Shown here piece after piece: positions 1 through 11,349 of a stretch of DNA of 12,105 nucleotides. The stretch spans positions 1 through 12,105 of IMG/VR virus record IMGVR_UViG_2609459833_000011. One strand, 5' to 3'. Position 1 is the first letter of the stretch. Each line of letters starts with the position of its first letter. The notes beneath the pieces were generated by a model that saw only the letters and a program-made list of their open reading frames with translations, ran no database searches and had not been told where the DNA came from. The stretch comes from a virus. Lineage: Duplodnaviria; Heunggongvirae; Uroviricota; Caudoviricetes. The position numbers and the translations under genes were made by a program.

Positions 1-375
1 TCGCCACGCATGACGGCGCAACTGGCCTGCGATGCCCTGCAGATGGCGCTGTGGCGGCGTAAGAGGCCCCGGAACGTTATCGTTCACACGGACCGTGGAG
101 GCCAGTACTGTTCAGCAGATTATCAGGCGCAACTGAAGCGGCATAATCTGCGTGGAAGTATGAGCGCAAAAGGTTGCTGCTACGATAATGCCTGCGTGGA
201 AAGCTTCTTTCATTCGCTGAAAGTGGAATGTATCCATGGAGAACACTTTATCAGCCGGGAAATAATGCGGGCAACGGTGTTTAATTATATCGAATGTGAT
301 TACAATCGGTGGCGGCGGCACAGTTGGTGTGGCGGCCTCAGTCCGGAACAATTTGAAAACAAGAACCTCGCTTAG
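1..375 (+). CDS. insF: IS3 transposase OrfB (InsF-like), 5'-partial, C-terminal about 124 codons
   Basis: Translation …[55 protein letters not shown]…[12 protein letters not shown] matches the IS3 InsF C-terminus from memory, including the DDE-region E in [11 protein letters not shown]. The frame is open from base 1, so the gene starts upstream of the window. Confidence 0.85.
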
Positions 376-405
376 GCCTGTGTCCATATTACGTGGGTAG
401 GATCA
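1..405 (+). mobile_element. IS3-family insertion sequence, 3' portion including right terminal inverted repeat; element continues left of the window
   Basis: Open frame from base 1 encodes the C-terminal end of an IS3 OrfB transposase. Bases about 367-405 (…aggcctgtgtccatattacgtgggtaggatca) are the reverse complement of the IS3 terminal repeat as I recall it (TGATCCTACCCACGTAATATGGACA…). Boundary at 405 placed from that recalled sequence. Confidence 0.85.
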
Positions 406-976
406 ATCCACCAATTTTTATGCTCTTGGCTGGTGCTTTCTCCATTTTTTTCATCGTTTCTTCGGATGGCTTATCTTGAAGCATTAACACAGATTCTTTT
501 TCATCTGTGAATGTATTAATTAGCCAATTCAAATGCGCCTCAAGCTCCCTTGCTCGAAGCGATGTGGATTGAACGATCATGACATGGTTGTTTAGTACAC
601 CAAAATATAAAATTGAATCTACAAACTCTCTTTTTTTGTCACTACGTTTATCTCCATCAATAATTATATCATTAGACGTGATGGAGTTAATGTCATAAAA
701 TTTAACATTATCACTAAGCTCTAATAGAGACTGGCTTTTGTCTTTTTCAAATAAAACCAGTTGCCCAAAAAGTATAGTTTTGTATGTGTCGCTTTTATTT
801 AAGAAACGATACCCCGAATTTTCATCTGAAGGTGTTATTTTTTCTTGTCTACTAAGTACTTTTTCTGCAACGCCGCCCTCACCTATAATACTAAGTAGTA
901 TGTTTTGTAATGATGATTTGCTGTGTGGGATTACTGCTTTTTTATAATGAACGACTTTTTGTCTGTTATCTTTCAT
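389..976 (-). CDS. Hypothetical protein (195 codons as read), AT-rich, in the rex-equivalent slot downstream of cI; 3' end fused to the IS3 terminal repeat, so probably truncated
   Basis: ATG at 976-974 and a long open frame. The last about 5 codons and the TAA stop (389-391) lie inside the IS3 inverted repeat (389-405), so the native C-terminus is missing. Markedly A/T-rich codon usage compared with cI. No family recognised by eye. Confidence 0.6.
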   Translation of the reverse strand: MKDNRQKVVHYKKAVIPHSKSSLQNILLSIIGEGGVAEKVLSRQEKITPSDENSGYRFLNKSDTYKTILFGQLVLFEKDKSQSLLELSDNVKFYDINSITSNDIIIDGDKRSDKKREFVDSILYFGVLNNHVMIVQSTSLRARELEAHLNWLINTFTDEKESVLMLQDKPSEETMKKMEKAPAKSIKIGGLILPT

Positions 977-1033
977 TGCTATAGTCCAACTAGTATTGAA
1001 TAAATAAACACAGTAAAGACATAAAAATTTCTT

Positions 1034-1063
1034 ATAGCTACCGATAACGTAATCGGTAGCTAT
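1034..1063 (-). terminator. Perfect 12-bp inverted repeat (ATAGCTACCGAT / ATCGGTAGCTAT, 6-nt loop) between cI and the downstream gene; candidate intrinsic terminator or protein-binding palindrome
   Basis: Arms at 1034-1045 and 1052-1063, loop aacgta. On the minus strand the hairpin is followed by AAGAAAUUUUUAU (reverse complement of 1021-1033). Lies 36 bp downstream of the cI stop. Confidence 0.35.
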
Positions 1064-1098
1064 TACAAATCAACCAAAGGTAATTCTTTACATACTAC

Positions 1099-1791
1099 CT
1101 ACCCATGCTTCCTGTAGGTCTGCGGCATGCTCCCAATAACTTTCCCGAAGATAAACACCCGGTTCATCTCGTCTTTCTCGATAGGGTCCCACGGTGAGTA
1201 GCTCTTGTTATCAGAGATAACCAGCAGTTTATCCTTCATCATTTGCAGGCGCTTTACATGGGCGGTGTCGTCGTACAGAAATGCATAGATACCATCACCG
1301 TCGAAAGATTTAACCGTGATATCAACGAACAGCAGATCACCTGGTTCGATCGTTCCTGACATGCTGTCACCACGCACGTTAATGATGCGGATATTTTCTG
1401 CCTTCCTGCCATCGAACATGTGACGAGCATCGTCAAACGAGTACTCAACCGAGCGTAGAACTTCTACAAACTCACGGTTGATGACTCCCGGCCCGGCACT
1501 GACTTCTATATCAAGAACGTCAATTTTGAAGTATTTGGAATGGCTGACAGCAGGCTTCCCTGATTGTTGACCGTCATTTCTCATCGGGCCTATGCCTGAT
1601 GAGAGCCATTCTGTTCGAACACCCAATGCATTAGCTATTTCAACAATTTTTGTTGAGCCGCGCGCGTTGCCGCTTGTCAGTCTCCAGATTGTGGGTTGAG
1701 CTACGCCAGACGCCTTTGCAAGAGCGCCTTGAGACATTCCAGATTGTTCCATCGCTAGGTTTAAGCGATCAGCAAGAGTTTCTTTTTTCAT
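1099..1791 (-). CDS. cI: CI-type prophage repressor: N-terminal HTH (XRE-like) plus C-terminal LexA/S24 peptidase-like autocleavage domain
   Basis: HTH segment MSQGALAKASGVAQPTIWRL. C-terminal domain has the S24 Ser motif (RGDSMSGTIEPGDLL) and a downstream Lys (AHVKRL). Start placed at ATG 1791-1789 (MKKETLADRL…); the ORF-track start at 1827 is a TTG 12 codons upstream and cannot be excluded. Confidence 0.85.
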   Translation of the reverse strand: MKKETLADRLNLAMEQSGMSQGALAKASGVAQPTIWRLTSGNARGSTKIVEIANALGVRTEWLSSGIGPMRNDGQQSGKPAVSHSKYFKIDVLDIEVSAGPGVINREFVEVLRSVEYSFDDARHMFDGRKAENIRIINVRGDSMSGTIEPGDLLFVDITVKSFDGDGIYAFLYDDTAHVKRLQMMKDKLLVISDNKSYSPWDPIEKDEMNRVFIFGKVIGSMPQTYRKHG

Positions 1792-1901
1792 AAGTTTTAA
1801 TTTATACGCTTGCGTATTGATGGTCAAAACACGTTTGGCTATTGCTTGGATTAATACGCATTGCTATTATTCATTCATTGCAATACCAATAGGAATTGAT
1901 A
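1792..1901. promoter_or_regulatory. Divergent cI/cro control region with candidate operator palindromes and a pR-like promoter
   Basis: 14-bp palindrome ATACGCttGCGTAT at 1804-1817; related half-site repeat ATACGCattGCtAT at 1854-1867. Candidate pR: -35 TTGCTT (1842-1847), 17-bp spacer, -10 TATTAT (1865-1870), overlapping the second operator-like site; cro SD AGGA at 1891-1894. Confidence 0.4.
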
Positions 1902-2129
1902 ATGACAAATCAAACCATTCAACTCGCAATCAGTATTACAGGTAGTCAAAAGCGACTGGCAGATCTATGCGGTGTAGCCCAGCCCACTGTTTGGCGTTGG
2001 CTACACGGTGGCGGAATTGATGCCCGCTATGTAATGAAAATTGTCTCAGCCACTGGTGGAAAGATTAAACCAGCAGATATTCGTCCCGACCTCGCACCAT
2101 TGTTTAACGCGAGTAATTCTGCCGCCTAA
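1902..2129 (+). CDS. cro: Cro-like small HTH repressor (Cro/CI family)
   Basis: 75-aa product with HTH (LADLCGVAQPTVWRWL), divergently oriented to cI across an operator region. ATG at 1902 with SD AGGA at spacing 7; the ORF-track start at 1896 is TTG. Confidence 0.8.
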   Translation: MTNQTIQLAISITGSQKRLADLCGVAQPTVWRWLHGGGIDARYVMKIVSATGGKIKPADIRPDLAPLFNASNSAA

Positions 2130-2153
2130 TCTGCGGCGTTAACTGATAAGGCA

Positions 2154-2699
2154 ATGACTATGCAACCACTTACATACCAACAGACTAGCGGATTTAGCCC
2201 GACTGCGGTGATAAATCGTTCTCAAACAAAACAAGCTCCAGGCCACGAAAAAATCCGTGATGCCGTCCGCGCCTGGTCGGCTGCAGATAATCAGGATGTT
2301 GTTGCCGCACTCATTGTGAATGAGTATCGGGAGCAGGGCGGCGGCACCATCGATTTCCCTGATGATGTCAGCCGTGCACGCCAGAAGCTGTTCCGCTTCC
2401 TCGATAACAAATTCGATTCTGAAAAATACCGAAATAACGTGCGTGAACTGACCCCGGCAATTCTGGCGGTACTACCGCTGGAATATCGCGGCCACCTGGT
2501 TGAGCAGGATAGCTTCATGGCTCGGCTGGCTGAAATGGAAAAGGAACTCAGTGAGGCAAAACAGGCTGTCATTCTCAACGCACCACGCCACCAGAAACTG
2601 AAGGAGATGAGTGAAGGCATTGTGTCGATGTTTCGTGTGGACCCGGATCTGGCTGGTCCACTGATGGCGATGGTCACCACCATGCTGGGGGCAATATGA
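2154..2699 (+). CDS. Hypothetical early protein in the cII position (181 aa); possible CII-like/YdaT-like regulator, family not verified
   Basis: Long ORF directly after cro on the same strand, stop overlapping the upstream ATG of the O frame. Far larger than lambda CII; assignment is by position only. Start could alternatively be ATG 2160. Confidence 0.65.
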   Translation: MTMQPLTYQQTSGFSPTAVINRSQTKQAPGHEKIRDAVRAWSAADNQDVVAALIVNEYREQGGGTIDFPDDVSRARQKLFRFLDNKFDSEKYRNNVRELTPAILAVLPLEYRGHLVEQDSFMARLAEMEKELSEAKQAVILNAPRHQKLKEMSEGIVSMFRVDPDLAGPLMAMVTTMLGAI

Positions 2700-2785: not shown

Positions 2786-3715
2786 ATGGCAAACACTGCT
2801 GAGATATTCAATTTTCCAGTGCCGGATGCGGCACAAAAGGAGCCGCGCGTGGCAGATCTCGATGATGGTTATACGCGCATTGCAAATGAGTTGCTGGAAG
2901 CTGTGATGCTGGCCGGATTAACACAGCACCAGCTTCTGGTCTTTCTGGCTGTCATGCGCAAAACATATGGCTTTAATAAAAAACTGGATTGGGTTAGCAA
3001 CGAGCAACTTTCCGAATTAACCGGGATATTGCCGCACAAGTGTTCTGCTGCAAAAAGTGTTCTGGTAAAGCGTGGGATTCTTATTCAGAGCGGGCGGAAT
3101 ATCGGCATCAATAATGTGGTCAGTGAATGGTCAACATTACCCGAATCAGGTAAGAAAAATAAAGTTTACCTGAAAGAGGTAAATTTACCTGAATCAGGTA
3201 AGAAAAGTTTACCCAAATCAGGTAAAGGCACTTACCCGAATCAGGTAAACACAAAAGACAAACTAACAAAAGACAATATAAAACCTTTTTCGTCCGAGAA
3301 TTCTGACGAATCCTCTGACCAGCCAGAAAATGCCCTTCCTGTGGTGAAACCGGATGCTGCGATTCAGAGCGGCAGCAAGTGGGGGACAGCAGAAGACCTG
3401 ACTGCCGCAGAGTGGATGTTTGACATGGTGAAGACCATCGCGCCATCAGCCAGAAAACCGAATTTTGCAGGGTGGGCTAACGATATCCGCCTGATGCGTG
3501 AACGTGACGGACGTAACCACCGCGACATGTGCGTGCTGTTCCGCTGGGCCTGCCAGGACAACTTCTGGTCCGGTAACGTGCTGAGTCCGGCCAAACTACG
3601 CGACAAGTGGACCCAGCTCGAAATCAACCGTAACAAGCAACAGGCTGGCGTGACAGCCGGAAAACCAAAACTCGACCTGACGAACACTGACTGGATTTAC
3701 GGGGTGGAGTTATGA
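2786..3715 (+). CDS. O: Replication initiator protein O (lambda O family)
   Basis: MANTAEIFNF…VADLDDGYTRIANELLEA…LLVFLAVMRKTYGFNK…SNEQLSELTG… parallels lambda O from memory. ATG 2786 has a strong SD GGGAGG (2776-2781) and aligns with the lambda O N-terminus. Iterons lie inside the gene; stop overlaps the P start (ATGA). Confidence 0.9.
   Translation: MANTAEIFNFPVPDAAQKEPRVADLDDGYTRIANELLEAVMLAGLTQHQLLVFLAVMRKTYGFNKKLDWVSNEQLSELTGILPHKCSAAKSVLVKRGILIQSGRNIGINNVVSEWSTLPESGKKNKVYLKEVNLPESGKKSLPKSGKGTYPNQVNTKDKLTKDNIKPFSSENSDESSDQPENALPVVKPDAAIQSGSKWGTAEDLTAAEWMFDMVKTIAPSARKPNFAGWANDIRLMRERDGRNHRDMCVLFRWACQDNFWSGNVLSPAKLRDKWTQLEINRNKQQAGVTAGKPKLDLTNTDWIYGVEL
3137..3251 (+). repeat. Origin-of-replication iterons inside O: four clear and one degenerate copy of about TTACCyrAATCAGGTAA at roughly 24-bp spacing, followed by an A-rich tract
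   Basis: Copies at about 3137-3154, 3165-3183 (degenerate), 3185-3203, 3209-3228 and 3232-3251, each with internal dyad symmetry (CTGAatCAGG). Followed by acacaaaagacaaactaacaaaagacaatataaaacc (to about 3292). Same architecture as lambda ori inside O. Confidence 0.75.
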
Positions 3716-4422
3716 AAAACATCGCCGCACAGATGGTTAATTTTGACCGTGAGCAGATGCGCCGGATCGCCAATAACATGCCGGAACAGTACGACGAAAA
3801 GCCGCAGGTACAGCAGGTAGCGCAGATTATCAATGGTGTGTTCAGCCAGTTACTGGCAACTTTCCCGGCGAGCCTGGCTAACCGGGACCAGAATGAACTG
3901 AACGAAATCCGCCGCCAGTGGGTTCTGGCTTTCCGGGAAAATGGGATCACCACGATGGAACAGGTTAACGCTGGAATGCGCGTAGCCCGTCGGCAGAATC
4001 GACCATTCCTGCCATCACCCGGGCAGTTTGTCGCCTGGTGCCGGGAAGAAGCATCCGTTAACGTCGGGCTGCCAAACGTCAGCGAGCTGGTTGATATGGT
4101 CTATGAGTATTGTCGGAAGCGTGGCCTGTATCCAGATGCAGAGTCTTATCCATGGAAATCAAACGCGCACTACTGGCTGGTTACCAACCTGTACCAGAAC
4201 ATGCGGGCCAATGCGTTGACTGACGCGGAATTACGGCGCATGGCTGCCGATGAACTGTCCTGTATGACCGCGCGAATTAACCGTGGTGAAGCGATCCCTG
4301 AACCGGTGAAACAACTTCCTGTCATGGGCGGCAGGCCGCTTAATCGTGTTCAGAGCTTGGAAAAAATTAAACAATTGCGTGCTAAACATGGATTATGTAG
4401 AGGGAAAAGGTTTAGTGGATGA
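3712..4422 (+). CDS. P: Replication protein P (DnaB helicase loader, lambda P family)
   Basis: MKNIAAQMVNFDREQMRRIANNMPEQYDEKPQVQQVAQIINGVFSQLLATFPASLANRDQNE… is near-identical to lambda P as I recall it over most of its length. The last about 20 codons differ and are AT-rich. Confidence 0.95.
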   Translation: MKNIAAQMVNFDREQMRRIANNMPEQYDEKPQVQQVAQIINGVFSQLLATFPASLANRDQNELNEIRRQWVLAFRENGITTMEQVNAGMRVARRQNRPFLPSPGQFVAWCREEASVNVGLPNVSELVDMVYEYCRKRGLYPDAESYPWKSNAHYWLVTNLYQNMRANALTDAELRRMAADELSCMTARINRGEAIPEPVKQLPVMGGRPLNRVQSLEKIKQLRAKHGLCRGKRFSG

Positions 4423-4545: not shown

Positions 4546-6192
4546 ATGTGTGAAACCTATATTTTTAGGTTCCGTGACCTAGGAAAAAGTGAAGGATTTA
4601 CCATCGAGCAACACAATAACATTGCTCGCCAAGAAGGGAATGTTTGGTGGGGGTGGTGGGCTAAATCTGGTGAGCGTTTCCCATCACTGGAACTAAAAAA
4701 TGCGGCAGAAAAAAATAAACAAATATATTTTTTTGATTCAGGGCGGCTTAAATTTTATACCGCTGTATTAAAGGATACTTGCTCGTCAGCTTTAGGGGAT
4801 ATAAAAAAGCAATCTCCTAAGGATGGTTGCAGAACCCCAGCATATTATAATGAGAATGAGTTGCTGGGATGGTTAAATGTTTCTGAGATTATAGAAATTG
4901 ATGCTTGTGATATCCTCAAAAAATTCACATATATTCCATTGGATGCATTGTTTGCAGGTAATAAAGATTTAGATGAGCAACTTTTCAACAAAATTGTCTT
5001 TTCTTCAGCTGAATTAAAAAAACAAGATAGAACTATTTGGAAGATTAGACCTGCAAATGATAAAGATTTACAGCATGAGTCATTAGCATCTCATTATGTT
5101 CCTTATAATTTCAGTCGGAAGTATAGCCAAAAAAAAGGGGAGTTTATAATTTGGCTTTCGGATATTCATTTTGATGGCGGAAATGGGAAACATGCATTTC
5201 CGACACAAGATAATGATCAGCTAAAATGTTTATCCTCTCGAGTGGTGGAGTTGGCTGGAAAATATAATAATGGGAGTAAATGTGCTGGGTTGGCTATTTC
5301 AGGTGATTTGACGTGGCAGTCACAGAAAGAGGGATTCGAGCAAGCTTTGAATTTTATCAAAGATGTTAGTTCTTCTCTTAGTCTGACAACGGATGATATA
5401 ATTATTTGTCCTGGGAATCACGATGTAGGTCTGGTTTCTAAAGATGAGTACTTTAAAATCGTTGGTAAGCCTGTAACGGATAAACCATGGAAAATTCTGG
5501 CGGAAAACTACCATAGCGAAAGTAAACTTAATTATATAAAATTTTATCGAGATTTTTTTCAAAGGGAACCTGAAGAAAATTTATCACAAGGAAGGAAATT
5601 TTTACTAGGTGGCCATAAAGTTGTTGAAATAGCCGCATTGAACTCATGCGTATTACAACAAGTAAAAGATTCATTTTTGGGCATGGGATTTGTCGGTGAG
5701 CAACAACTCAGTGATGTTGCAAAATCTATGGGATGGATGAATGATAGCGGAGGAGATATACTCAAAAAGAAAGGTGTTATAAGAATTGCTATGCTTCACC
5801 ATCACCTAACTTCTATTAATGAAGTTGAAGATGCCTATCTTGATTCAAGATATAGTGTAACATTAGATGCAGAGCGATTATTACGTTGGGTAGTAAGGCA
5901 TAAAGTTGATTATATTCTGCATGGTCATATGCACAGAAGTAGTTTTATTACAATAACAAAAAAACTATCTCCGTTAGAACCAGTGACGGATTCAAATCCT
6001 GAACATACATTCCAAATTGTTTCTTTGGGAAGTTCAGGAGTTGTTAGTTCGGAATTGCCAAGTCAGGATTGTGCTAACTATGCATGCGTACTGGATTTTT
6101 CTGGCGAAAAGCTAACTTTTAATTTTTTCAAGCTTGATAAACAGAGCGGAGAAAAAGTGGCGGCTACTTATATTGTTGAAGGTTTATTATGA
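4546..6192 (+). CDS. Calcineurin-like metallophosphoesterase (548 aa) with an unassigned N-terminal domain of about 200 aa
   Basis: Complete metallophosphoesterase motif set in order: DxH (WLSDIHFDGGN), GD (LAISGDLT), GNHD (ICPGNHDVG), H (AMLHHH), GHxH (ILHGHMH). N-terminal third has no recognisable motifs except a Trp cluster (GNVWWGWW). Strongly AT-rich codon usage. Confidence 0.85.
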   Translation: MCETYIFRFRDLGKSEGFTIEQHNNIARQEGNVWWGWWAKSGERFPSLELKNAAEKNKQIYFFDSGRLKFYTAVLKDTCSSALGDIKKQSPKDGCRTPAYYNENELLGWLNVSEIIEIDACDILKKFTYIPLDALFAGNKDLDEQLFNKIVFSSAELKKQDRTIWKIRPANDKDLQHESLASHYVPYNFSRKYSQKKGEFIIWLSDIHFDGGNGKHAFPTQDNDQLKCLSSRVVELAGKYNNGSKCAGLAISGDLTWQSQKEGFEQALNFIKDVSSSLSLTTDDIIICPGNHDVGLVSKDEYFKIVGKPVTDKPWKILAENYHSESKLNYIKFYRDFFQREPEENLSQGRKFLLGGHKVVEIAALNSCVLQQVKDSFLGMGFVGEQQLSDVAKSMGWMNDSGGDILKKKGVIRIAMLHHHLTSINEVEDAYLDSRYSVTLDAERLLRWVVRHKVDYILHGHMHRSSFITITKKLSPLEPVTDSNPEHTFQIVSLGSSGVVSSELPSQDCANYACVLDFSGEKLTFNFFKLDKQSGEKVAATYIVEGLL

Positions 6193-7025
6193 AATTACTT
6201 ATTACTGATTTGGATAATACACTGTACGATTGGGTGAGTTTTTACTCCCAGTCATTTAGTGCCATGGCAGAGCAATTATCTAAGGATATTGATGTGCCTT
6301 TGGATACGCTCCTGTCAGAATATAAAACAATTCATCAGAAGTTTGGTAACTCAGAAAAACCATTTGCTACTTTAGAGCTACCATCTGTGATATCTTACTT
6401 TGGAACTAATGATAAAACGATTTTGCAGGAAAAACTTACTAATGTTTTTCAGGCGTTTAGCACAAAACGTAACCAGACATTAATGTTGTATCCTACTGTA
6501 AAAGAAACGCTGGAATTATTGAAGAAACGGGGGGTAAAAATTGTAGGGCATACTGAAGCTTTGGAGTTTAATTCTTTATATCGTCTGAATAAGCTTGGTA
6601 TAATTGATTTTTTTGATCATCTTTATACATTAGAAGATATTCATAATATCCACCCGAATCCCAAAAATGCAAAAAAAATACCTGTGAAGGATGACTTTGT
6701 AATTAGATTGTCCTGCGCTGAGTCAAAGCCAAACCCTAAATTGCTTGAGCACATATGTTCTTTTGAAGGAGTTAGTGTTGAAGATGCGGTATACATTGGC
6801 GATTCTATAACTAAAGATATGTCCATGGCTAAAGCTGTGGGGGTTACTGCTGTTTGGGCTAATTATGGGCGACAGTTTTCACCTGAATTGTGGAAAGTTT
6901 TAGTGAAAATCACACACTGGAAAGATGCAGATGTGGAGAGGGAGGAACAACTTAGAAAAGCATTCTCCAATGTTAGACCTGATTATGTTGTTAATAGTTT
7001 TTCAGAGCTGCTGAATTTGAAATGA
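6189..7025 (+). CDS. HAD-superfamily hydrolase (phosphatase-like), 278 aa
   Basis: HAD motif I at the N-terminus (LITDLDNTLYD), a candidate motif II Thr (VGHTEA), motif III Lys (ESKPNPK) and motif IV GDxxxD (YIGDSITKD). Cap-like insert between motifs I and II. ATG overlaps the upstream stop (ATGA at 6189-6192). Confidence 0.85.
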   Translation: MKLLITDLDNTLYDWVSFYSQSFSAMAEQLSKDIDVPLDTLLSEYKTIHQKFGNSEKPFATLELPSVISYFGTNDKTILQEKLTNVFQAFSTKRNQTLMLYPTVKETLELLKKRGVKIVGHTEALEFNSLYRLNKLGIIDFFDHLYTLEDIHNIHPNPKNAKKIPVKDDFVIRLSCAESKPNPKLLEHICSFEGVSVEDAVYIGDSITKDMSMAKAVGVTAVWANYGRQFSPELWKVLVKITHWKDADVEREEQLRKAFSNVRPDYVVNSFSELLNLK

Positions 7026-9106: not shown

Positions 9107-9490
9107 ATGCGTGATATTCAGATGGTTCTTGAGCGTTGGGGAGCGTGGGCGGCTAATAATCATGAAGATGTGACCTGGTCGTCCATTGCCGCCGGTTTTA
9201 AGGGATTAATTCCTTCAAAAGTAAAATCTCGCCCGCAATGTTGTGACGATGACGCGATGATCATTTGCGGGTGCATGGCCCGTCTGAAAAAGAACAACAG
9301 CGATTTGCACGATTTATTAGTAGATTATTATATAGTCGGTATGACATTCATGTCACTGGCAGGTAAGCATTGCTGCTCTGATGGTTATATCGGGAAAAGG
9401 TTACAAAAGGCTGAGGGCATAATTGAAGGGATGTTAATGGCATTAGATATCCGGTTAGAGATGGATATCGTTGTTAATAACTCTAATTAA
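9107..9490 (+). CDS. quuD: Late-gene antiterminator Q (phage 82/DLP12 QuuD type)
   Basis: ATG 9107 with SD GGAG (9096-9099), 127 aa: [33 protein letters not shown]…[16 protein letters not shown]… with Cys-rich Zn-binding-like motifs. The ORF-track start at 9092 is TTG. Confidence 0.85.
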
Positions 9491-9678: not shown

Positions 9679-10761
9679 TTAGAACTGGTAAACCATACCT
9701 ACAGCAACGATATCATCGGTAGCAACGCCAGATGCTTTCGTGAAATCGCTCTTATCAATCAGGTTGATTTTGTAGTCAACAAAAGTGGACATATTTTTGT
9801 TGAAGTAATAGGTTGCACCTACATCAACATATTCAACCAGGTCCTGATCACCCCAAACACCCAAGTCTTTTCCTTTAGAATGCAGGTAAGCAACGGATGG
9901 ACGCAGGCCGAAGTCGAACTGATATTGTGCAACAGCTTCGAAGTTTTGTGCTTTGTTGGCAATATGGTTATTACCAAAAACAGTCATGTTCTGGGTTTCA
10001 GAATAGGTGGTGGCCAGATAGATGTTGTTCGCATCATATTTCAGACCAGCTGCCCATACTTCAGCATTTTGACCAGAAGCATTCAGACCGTTGTTACCGT
10101 AGATAACCTGATTATTAGTGCGATCAGATTTAGCATAGGTTGCACCCACGCCGAATCCTTCATACTCATAAGTAGTTGAGAAACCGAAACCATCGCCATT
10201 AGCTTCAGTTACTTCATTTCGGTCATTTTTGCCCTGATACTGAGCTGCAAAGTTCAGGCCATCAACCAGACCAAAGAAGTCGTTGTTACGATAAGTTGCA
10301 ACACCTGTGGTGCGACCAGTCATGAATACATCTGTTTGGGTCCAGGTATCGCCACCGAATTCTGGCAGAACGTCAGTCCACGCACCGATGTCGTATGCTA
10401 CACCGTAGTTACGGCCGTAATCGATTGAGCCGTAGTCACCGAATTTCAGGCCTGCAAATGCAAGACGGGTTTTGTCTTTGGAGGAACCTTGAGATTCAGC
10501 GCGGTTGCCTTTGAATTCATATTCCCACTGACCGAAACCAGTCAGTTGATCGTTGATTTGGGTTTCACCTTTGAAGCCAAGACGGGCATAAGTAGTATCA
10601 CCATCATCTGCATCATTAGAGGAGAAGTAGTGCTTAGCATTAACTTTCCCGTACAGATCCAGCTTGTTACTGTCTTTATTATAAATTTCAGCTGCCTGAG
10701 CAGACATCGCCATCAGTACTGATGCAGCTACAGCAGAAATTGCCACTGTTAATTTTTTCAT
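9679..10761 (-). CDS. nmpC: General diffusion porin of the OmpC/OmpF/PhoE/NmpC family, prophage-borne (moron)
   Basis: 360-aa product with signal peptide [23 protein letters not shown]|AEIYNKD and hallmark porin segments (…[10 protein letters not shown]…[14 protein letters not shown]…[23 protein letters not shown]…) ending in the C-terminal Phe (MVYQF). Opposite strand to flanking phage genes. Symbol assigned by DLP12 synteny, not exact identity. Confidence 0.85.
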
Positions 10762-11349
10762 CGTGAGCCCTTTTTTTTGAACTATTATTAAAAAATGATG
10801 TCACTGCGCGATAAATATTCATCTAATCAATGTGATTATTTCAAGATGTAAGTTTTAGTTTCTCATTTAATTTGTGAAGTAGATCTCTATTTTTATCTGA
10901 ACTTTTTCTATCGAAACCTATTTATGGCTCTTATTTGAACAAAAATAAACCTATTAGCTAATTTATATTAATGGCTGTTATTTATGGGGATTCTATAATT
11001 CGGCAGTTTAATTTAAATCAACTAAAAATAACGTCTGAAATTATTTATTGGTTATTTGTTGAGGTTTTCTTATGTATTTGTGGTGGTGTTTTGAACACTC
11101 GGTAGCATTCTCATAAATATCATTCAGTGGTTTACGTACGTAAAAAATTGGTTATGCTGTTAAGAGTGGTTACTTCGTCACACAGCTTAAACCCGCCGTC
11201 GAGCTGGTTTTTCCATTTTTTGAGTCTCGATATTAGCTGATAACCCAATACCTGAGTTATTCACTGACTCCGAGTCTGTTACGTTTCTGCTTTTTTGTGA
11301 TACGTTGTATTCCCTCAATTTACACCCGCTTTGTCTGCGAGGTGGGGTT

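Follow-up and report, generated by a model that had tools for sequence, protein, structure and literature searches.

In bacteriophage λ the cI gene is followed by rexA, rexB, a terminator and then the OL/PL region. RexA has activity that is independent of RexB; it binds both DNA and CI, and it stabilizes the lytic state (PMC11077077). The globular domain of RexA is formed by residues 1–139 together with residues 248–279, the dimerization domain lying between them (PMC11077077). RexA-like proteins of 370–372 amino acids are encoded with 4-TM partners by mycobacteriophage Sbash (gp30/gp31) and by Gordonia phage CarolAnn (gp44/gp43), and in Sbash gp31 a central cytoplasmic loop is essential, with the R70A and D73A substitutions abolishing defense (PMC6426596). 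Mycobacteriophage Butters (gp30/gp31) likewise combines a RexA-like soluble protein with a membrane protein, as does the locus described here, and the prophage P1 of P. putida encodes RexABpp, the products of PP_5643/PP_5644 (Rosendahl et al. 2026, PMC12894663).

Here we analyze an AT-rich open reading frame that lies beside cI in a lambdoid prophage of Escherichia coli. A reading of the DNA made from its letters alone, which we refer to as the sequence-only reading, had placed this ORF in the slot that corresponds to rex and had raised the idea that it was the remnant of an exclusion or abortive-infection gene.

Results

IS3 truncates an AT-rich gene downstream of cI

The window, by which we mean the whole 12,105-nt stretch of DNA that was analyzed, is the complete contig JNRV01000104.1 of assembly GCA_000704865.1; it spans the immunity, replication, nin and lysis region of the prophage, and one of its ends is located inside IS3. 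The features between this end and the operators adjacent to cI are listed below.

1–405, plus strand: right end of IS3, comprising the C-terminus of transposase OrfB and the terminal inverted repeat (Pfam and repeat sequence)
10–375, plus strand: C-terminus of the IS3 transposase OrfB (Pfam rve, rve_2 and rve_3)
About 366–405: IS3 terminal inverted repeat, whose reverse complement is TGATCCTACCCACGTAATATGGACACAGGCCTAAGCGAGG
389–976, minus strand: chimeric ORF of 195 codons, made up of 190 native codons, a junction codon and four IS3 codons, followed by a stop
389–405, minus strand: IS3-derived tail of the ORF (codon-by-codon reading of the junction)
406–976, minus strand: native 5′ part (56%) of a gene for a 340-amino-acid RexA-like protein (100% identity to 41 complete E. 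coli genomes)
977–1098, minus strand: spacer between cI and the ORF, with a hairpin and a U-run (inverted repeat I1 and RNA fold)
1099–1827, minus strand: cI-type repressor with HTH and Peptidase_S24 domains (Pfam)
1828–1895: OR-type operator region between cI and cro, with ATTGCTATT repeats (repeat comparison with the related prophage L001)

Truncation of the gene by IS3 is certain. Both an OrfB (DDE, rve) transposase and the IS3 terminal inverted repeat (TGATCCTACCCACGTAATATGGACACAGG.../TGATCCTACCCACG..., ending at 405) are present, and in thousands of E. coli records the matching sequence is annotated as 'IS3-like element IS3 family transposase'. The sequence-only reading had attributed the final codons and the stop of the ORF to the IS3 repeat, and the junction bears this out. 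Codon 191 spans the junction (404–406) with its last two bases (404–405) contributed by IS3, and residues 192–195 (ILPT, 392–403) as well as the TAA stop (389–391) are read from the repeat, whereas residues 1–191 are identical to those of the 340-amino-acid protein encoded by the IS-free allele. The ORF had also been described as AT-rich and as lying beside cI on the same strand; indeed, the native part has a GC content of 33.8%, as compared to 47–53% for cI, cro, O and P, and 122 nt separate cI from the start of the ORF, which follows it in the same orientation.

The IS3 junction is shared by at least nine contigs from several samples, all of which break in IS3, and the same 195-amino-acid product is called on nine contigs; the junction is thus no assembly artifact of the window contig. 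We found no instance of it among 5,426 complete RefSeq E. coli genomes. Nor did we find the far side of the insertion, as the junction contigs all end in IS3 and look-ups with the partner protein described below returned intact alleles only. Because the window contig itself ends in IS3, any partner gene is out of view there.

Compared with positions 377–2159 of the window, two of the junction contigs (L044 and L046) carry the identical IS3 junction. The N-terminal part of cI, the operators and cro differ in these contigs, which have no match to window positions 1550–2159, indicating that one and the same dead allele is shared by two immunity types or more. Its distribution could reflect recombination after the insertion or a target hot spot for IS3.

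The intact allele is a two-gene cassette between cI and OL/PL

Megablast with positions 406–1100 identified an IS-free allele at 100% DNA identity in 41 complete E. coli genomes, all of them lacking the IS at this site, and the same allele is present in phage Perceval of E. coli strain LF82. These genomes supply the full-length allele and the neighbors that the sequence-only reading had proposed to find by homology search. They also substantiate its proposals that the native protein was longer and that a partner gene would lie beyond the insertion point: the intact gene (1,023 bp) encodes 340 amino acids (WP_000654525), and a second gene (507 bp), which encodes a protein of 168 amino acids with four TM segments, begins 21 nt after it.

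In L001, L002 and Perceval, which are IS-free, the gene order is cI, the 340-amino-acid gene, the 168-amino-acid gene, a terminator, OL/PL, kil, gam, bet and exo. In Perceval the two genes are PERCE_43-42 (OV696612, 33309–34859), and NZ_CP019455 has an intact cassette at 3829454–3831004. The cassette is closed by an intrinsic terminator (CCCGGCCGTCGTGCCGGG plus TTTTCTTTT). Beyond the terminator lies an OL block of 49 nt that is 71% identical to OR (direct repeats D1/D2 of L001, 6813–6861 versus 9415–9463) and that contains ATTGCTATTG units, together with a PL-like promoter (L001, 6847→6819). The intact E. coli cassette is therefore positioned downstream of cI, co-oriented with it and before an OL/PL region that repeats the OR operators, and this layout is the same as that of λ, in agreement with the assignment to the rex-equivalent slot. 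The repressor gene that precedes the cassette is annotated as such in L001 and in Perceval, in the latter as 'CI repressor', and its RefSeq product has 230 amino acids, starting from an internal ATG.

The 122-nt spacer that separates cI from the cassette contains a hairpin (1027–1070, minus strand) with a perfect 12-bp stem, UAGCUACCGAUU...AAUCGGUAGCUA, followed by AAAUUUUUAUG. The spacer as a whole has a predicted fold of −29.5 kcal/mol (z = −3.0), and the hairpin is 100% conserved in 41 of 41 genomes, among them those with a different cI allele. This hairpin may act as a partial or leaky terminator, or as a processing site, that sets the ratio of cI to cassette expression. Promoter-like matches inside the AT-rich gene are no more common than in shuffled sequence and so speak neither for nor against an internal PLIT-like promoter. 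On the far side of OL/PL, the stretch of approximately 270 nt between kil and OL/PL in intact relatives (L001, 6541–6810) contains no annotated N-type antiterminator gene; in the Perceval annotation a longer 'phi80 Kil homolog' occupies the interval between PL and kil.

The full-length protein is predicted to share the RexA fold

A word-index search returned 129 matches to the 340-amino-acid protein, and an exhaustive profile search enlarged the family to 781 clusters at 50% identity (E ≤ 1e-3), or 581 at E ≤ 1e-10. Members are 315–380 amino acids long and come mostly from Gammaproteobacteria, across which the reading frame is kept. Both a loss of frame in related genomes and the finding of structural or housekeeping homologs would have counted against an exclusion gene; the homologs are neither structural nor housekeeping proteins. 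The family alignment has 28 invariant positions and consists of two conserved blocks, with a variable linker starting at about residue 190.

An AlphaFold2 model of the 340-amino-acid protein, built on 46 sequences (mean pLDDT 72, pTM 0.70), begins with a well-folded N-terminal α/β domain (residues 1–190) and a low-confidence linker (residues 191–252); the C-terminal domain that follows combines four strands with several helices, the terminal one (residues 317–333) being long. The two-domain fold of RexA (PDB 8TWQ), in which a split α/β globular domain is combined with a dimerization domain of four strands and four helices, is reproduced in this predicted model. On this basis the full-length product of the truncated gene is predicted to share the RexA fold. 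This predicted structural homology to λ RexA itself lends weight to the idea of an exclusion-gene remnant. The IS3 break coincides with the start of the variable linker between the two domains, so that the window encodes the N-terminal globular domain only, and the copy there is without the putative dimerization domain and the C-terminal helix.

At the level of sequence the family does not connect to RexA. Neither the truncated ORF, nor the 340-amino-acid protein, nor any of 46 members matched the RexA models Pfam PF15969 or PADLOC PDLC02339 at permissive thresholds (E ≤ 1 to 10), whereas λ RexA, included as a positive control, scored 1e-97 and 9e-110, respectively. Profile–profile comparison with hhalign, using family alignments of 46 and of 253 sequences, gave a probability below 1% against the RexA profile, and a search of PDB sequences with the family profile found nothing. 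The relationship to RexA is thus one of fold only. A comparison of the 46 members with Pfam at E ≤ 1 revealed no recurrent family, DUF4747 included; a sub-threshold match to the Pfam 'LapA domain' in one Acinetobacter homolog did not recur in the family and was dropped. The 340- and 168-amino-acid proteins have no Pfam, PADLOC or NCBIfam assignment and belong to two PHROGs families of unknown function, phrog_3482 and phrog_16807. A literature search by accession returned no mention of the family proteins; the E. coli prophage-defense screen of Brenes & Laub (2025) lies outside that search.

The membrane partner has the topology of RexB

The adjacent, co-oriented gene in the intact allele encodes a small protein whose four hydrophobic helices are arranged as in RexB. 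In the AlphaFold2 model of this protein (pLDDT 86) the last of the four helices runs into a charged C-terminal helix. We surveyed 34 loci from Enterobacterales, Pseudomonas, Marinobacter, methanotrophs, Suttonella and others, and a partner of this type (161–225 amino acids, 3–4 TM) is adjacent in 31 of them, separated from the sensor gene by −41 to +31 nt. Partners taken from four very different contexts are 21–32% identical to one another. Conservation among the partners is highest at E72, R74 and R75, which lie in the cytoplasmic loop between TM2 and TM3, and at several positions of the C-terminal helix; within the E72-x-R74-R75 (ExRR) motif of this central loop, E72 and R75 are invariant.

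As with the soluble protein, the partner did not match the RexB models (Pfam PF15968, PADLOC PDLC02340), against λ proteins that match at 1e-97 to 1e-110, and hhalign returned a probability of about 1% against the RexB profile. What the partner and RexB share is topology and a charged TM2–TM3 loop. The second-best match of the partner model in BFVD is a 165-amino-acid protein of Sbash (probability 0.99, E 0.06). The top match, U5P455, is probably the truncated SfIV_48 discussed below.

The gene pair occurs in several accessory-gene slots

A location in the immunity region is not universal in the family. The pair adjoins a repressor gene in E. coli, in Pseudomonas sp. 273 and in Acinetobacter phages. 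A second site, with Q on one side and the lysis or stx genes on the other, is used in Stx2a-converting phages, in Shigella phage SfIV and in a prophage of Klebsiella, where the pair neighbors HicAB; in a satellite-like element with integrase, AlpA and D5-primase genes the pair separates the primase gene from the capsid block. The two genes travel together among accessory-gene slots, as is typical of accessory or defense cargo.

Three of these loci deserve description. In Acinetobacter phage phi1_092021 (PQ859669; L050, 2983–3984) a homolog that is 32% identical lies downstream of the repressor gene, carries the label 'DefenseFinder protein' and is followed by a partner of 167 amino acids; this homolog has no match among PADLOC models. 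In Stx2a_1447 (L052, 3492–5055) a two-gene module that is 34% identical is found on the strand opposite to the late genes, flanked by antiterminator Q and by the methylase/tRNA/stx2 region. In SfIV (KC814930; L053, 3501–4787), where the sensor is 52% identical, IS1 interrupts the partner gene, with residues 1–104 encoded at 3501–3812 and residues 100–170 at 4575–4787; the annotated SfIV_48 (108 amino acids) is the product of the truncated partner gene. The IS1 insertion in SfIV is a second, independent inactivation of the module by an IS, in addition to that of the sensor gene by IS3 in the window. Repeated hits of this kind are consistent with a module that is costly, and are equally consistent with a preference of IS elements for AT-rich targets.

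Other features of the prophage window

The genes of the window are arranged in the order cI, a YdaS-like cro, a YdaT-like cII equivalent, O, P, an AT-rich two-gene insert, ninB, ninE, ybcO, rusA, Q, a porin gene, holin and lysozyme. At the cro and cII positions (1896–2699, plus strand) YdaS-like (PF15943) and YdaT-like (PF06254) proteins replace the λ-type Cro and CII, as in CP-933P-type prophages. The insert between P and ninB (4546–7025, plus strand) is a second AT-rich segment (36% GC). Its first gene encodes a protein of 548 amino acids with PUA-like and metallophosphoesterase domains that matches NCBIfam NF053862, 'DS9_1_antiphage' (529 bits versus a cut-off of 420), and its second gene encodes a HAD phosphatase of 278 amino acids that matches PADLOC PDLC03008 (4e-57). 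The insert matches DS-9, a system with experimental validation in the DefensePredictor paper (PMC13092281). L002 and L044, prophages with the same backbone, have in this slot a pair of small unrelated genes that are read from the other strand. Downstream of Q is an intact gene for an OmpC/NmpC-type porin of 360 amino acids (9679–10761, minus strand), porins of this type being common accessory genes of lambdoid prophages, and an AT-rich (30% GC) intergenic stretch (approximately 10801–11200) lies between this gene and that for the holin.

Discussion

We consider it probable, by analogy with the Rex systems, that the truncated ORF is the dead remnant of a RexAB-type module for prophage exclusion (abortive infection), and that IS3 struck this module at a domain boundary. 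In support of this reading are the 4-TM partner, the position between cI and OL/PL, the mobility of the cassette, its low GC content, the DefenseFinder label of a homolog and the IS knock-outs. Counting against it is that sequence comparison provides no link to either RexA or RexB. The uncertain step is the anti-phage function. The copy in the window is a pseudogene because only residues 1–190 are encoded, the C-terminal domain is lost and any surviving partner gene is cut off from its promoter by at least 1.26 kb of IS3. If the analogy with RexA holds, IS3 has removed a dimerization-like domain and the terminal helix, so that the 195-amino-acid product should be inactive.

By further analogy with λ RexAB, Sbash gp30/31, CarolAnn and P. 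putida RexABpp, the intact module might work as follows. In a lysogen it would probably be co-transcribed with cI, in which case it would be expressed from PRM. The soluble protein may dimerize through its C-terminal domain, and the dimer would sense a cue of infection, either phage DNA or protein–DNA intermediates, or else a phage protein. The sensor would then engage the partner, by way of the cytoplasmic E72-x-R74-R75 loop or of the C-terminal helix of the partner, and the partner could open as a channel or pore, with collapse of membrane potential and ATP and abortion of the superinfection.

Three other explanations have to be weighed against an exclusion module. The RexA-fold protein might mainly modulate the switch between lysis and lysogeny, with the membrane protein tuning this activity. 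Speaking for such a role are the predicted fold itself, the documented second function of λ RexA (PMC11077077) and the fact that in prophages of E. coli, Pseudomonas and Acinetobacter the pair lies beside cI and the operators. The pair is, however, also found far from any repressor gene, in Stx2a phages, SfIV, Klebsiella and satellite-like elements, where there would be little reason to tune a switch that belongs to a single repressor, and the obligate 4-TM partner points instead to a membrane effector. We therefore regard a role mainly in the switch as unlikely, while noting that switch modulation and defense are not mutually exclusive. It is similarly improbable, in our estimation, that the pair is a membrane system of a non-Rex kind built on a RexA- or RdgC-like DNA-binding scaffold, be it a Kiwa-like superinfection-exclusion system that acts at the membrane on DNA as it enters, an RdgC-like modulator of recombination or an addiction (toxin–antitoxin) pair. 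RdgC (PDB 2OWL) does match the predicted structure, but much more weakly than RexA does, and it is without a membrane partner; the RdgC Pfam model has no match to the family, and neither do the models for KwaA and KwaB, the 4-TM and DUF4868 proteins of Kiwa.

Finally, the 195-amino-acid product could still be active by itself, perhaps as an N-terminal domain that binds DNA or as a dominant-negative protein, and this activity could be why it has persisted. IS3 interrupts the gene precisely at the linker and so leaves a complete N-terminal domain (pLDDT 81–94 for most of residues 1–180), and the identical allele occurs in several samples and in at least two immunity regions. The globular domain of RexA, however, is split and needs its C-terminal helix, and RexA function requires the dimerization domain (PMC11077077); in the model, helix 317–333 is lost together with the whole of the C-terminal domain. 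Moreover, the spread of the allele is explained equally well by clonal descent and recombination between prophages, and among 129 homologs there are no independent truncations at the same position. A functional fragment thus strikes us as highly improbable, and a dead remnant of an exclusion module is the reading that we prefer.

The family falls outside the sequence definitions of RexA, RexB, DUF4747 and Kiwa and has instead the structural and architectural features of the RexAB type. Compared with λ, RexA has 279 amino acids versus 340–360 in the family, which has a long, low-confidence interdomain linker, and RexB has 144 amino acids versus 161–190 in the partners, which have a long charged C-terminal helix; sequence similarity to both λ proteins is undetectable even profile against profile. 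Unlike λ rex, the cassette is not confined to the immunity region, and the family is far more diverse, with 781 clusters at 50% identity against 36 clusters at 90% identity recovered for RexA. The essential R70/D73 loop of Sbash gp31 is paralleled by the invariant ExRR of the partner in the equivalent loop. The Sbash and CarolAnn proteins, which are from actinobacteriophages, are said to carry DUF4747, whereas no Pfam family is present in the 46 members; in a tblastn search with RexA, Sbash was not among the matches listed. For Butters the logic is the reverse of that proposed here, with the soluble protein as effector and the membrane protein sequestering it.

RexABpp probably represents a different branch from the family, a comparison made through its primer-derived termini and mutated residues only. 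The termini (MHRTAT... and ...VYNKINHSTDV for RexApp; MLIGQLAKP... for RexBpp) had no match among 321 family and RexA sequences and 32 partners, the mutated residues of RexBpp did not align with residues of the partner, and exact-match scans of viral and metagenome collections with the RexABpp primers found nothing. HHpred links RexApp to RexA (98%), whereas hhalign gave no such link for the family.

We put forward, tentatively but as a serious possibility, the broader reading that the family is the largest and an unrecognized branch of Rex systems, in which a self-contained, horizontally mobile pair of RexA-fold sensor and 4-TM effector would respond to triggers of their own, at a cost high enough for IS elements to have knocked it out repeatedly. 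This reading would cover Perceval (LF82), Stx2a-converting phages, SfIV, prophages of Acinetobacter and Pseudomonas, and phage satellites, and no current sequence model covers the family. The consequence for the strain itself is smaller, as the Rex-like copy is dead and the DS-9 cassette in the same prophage looks intact. The locus in the window is itself a pseudogene, and its value lies in the recognition of the family. For annotation, a 'hypothetical protein' and a 'transmembrane protein' encoded beside cI in many enterobacterial prophages are probably a Rex analog, and clinically relevant hosts of the family include the AIEC strain LF82, Stx2a phages and the serotype-converting phage SfIV. 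The family would add a sixth and much more diverse branch, one that is undetectable by sequence models. If the broader reading is true, hundreds of diverged natural variants would be at hand for learning how RexA-type sensors recognize infection and gate their membrane partners, which bears on a question that has been open since Benzer's rII work.
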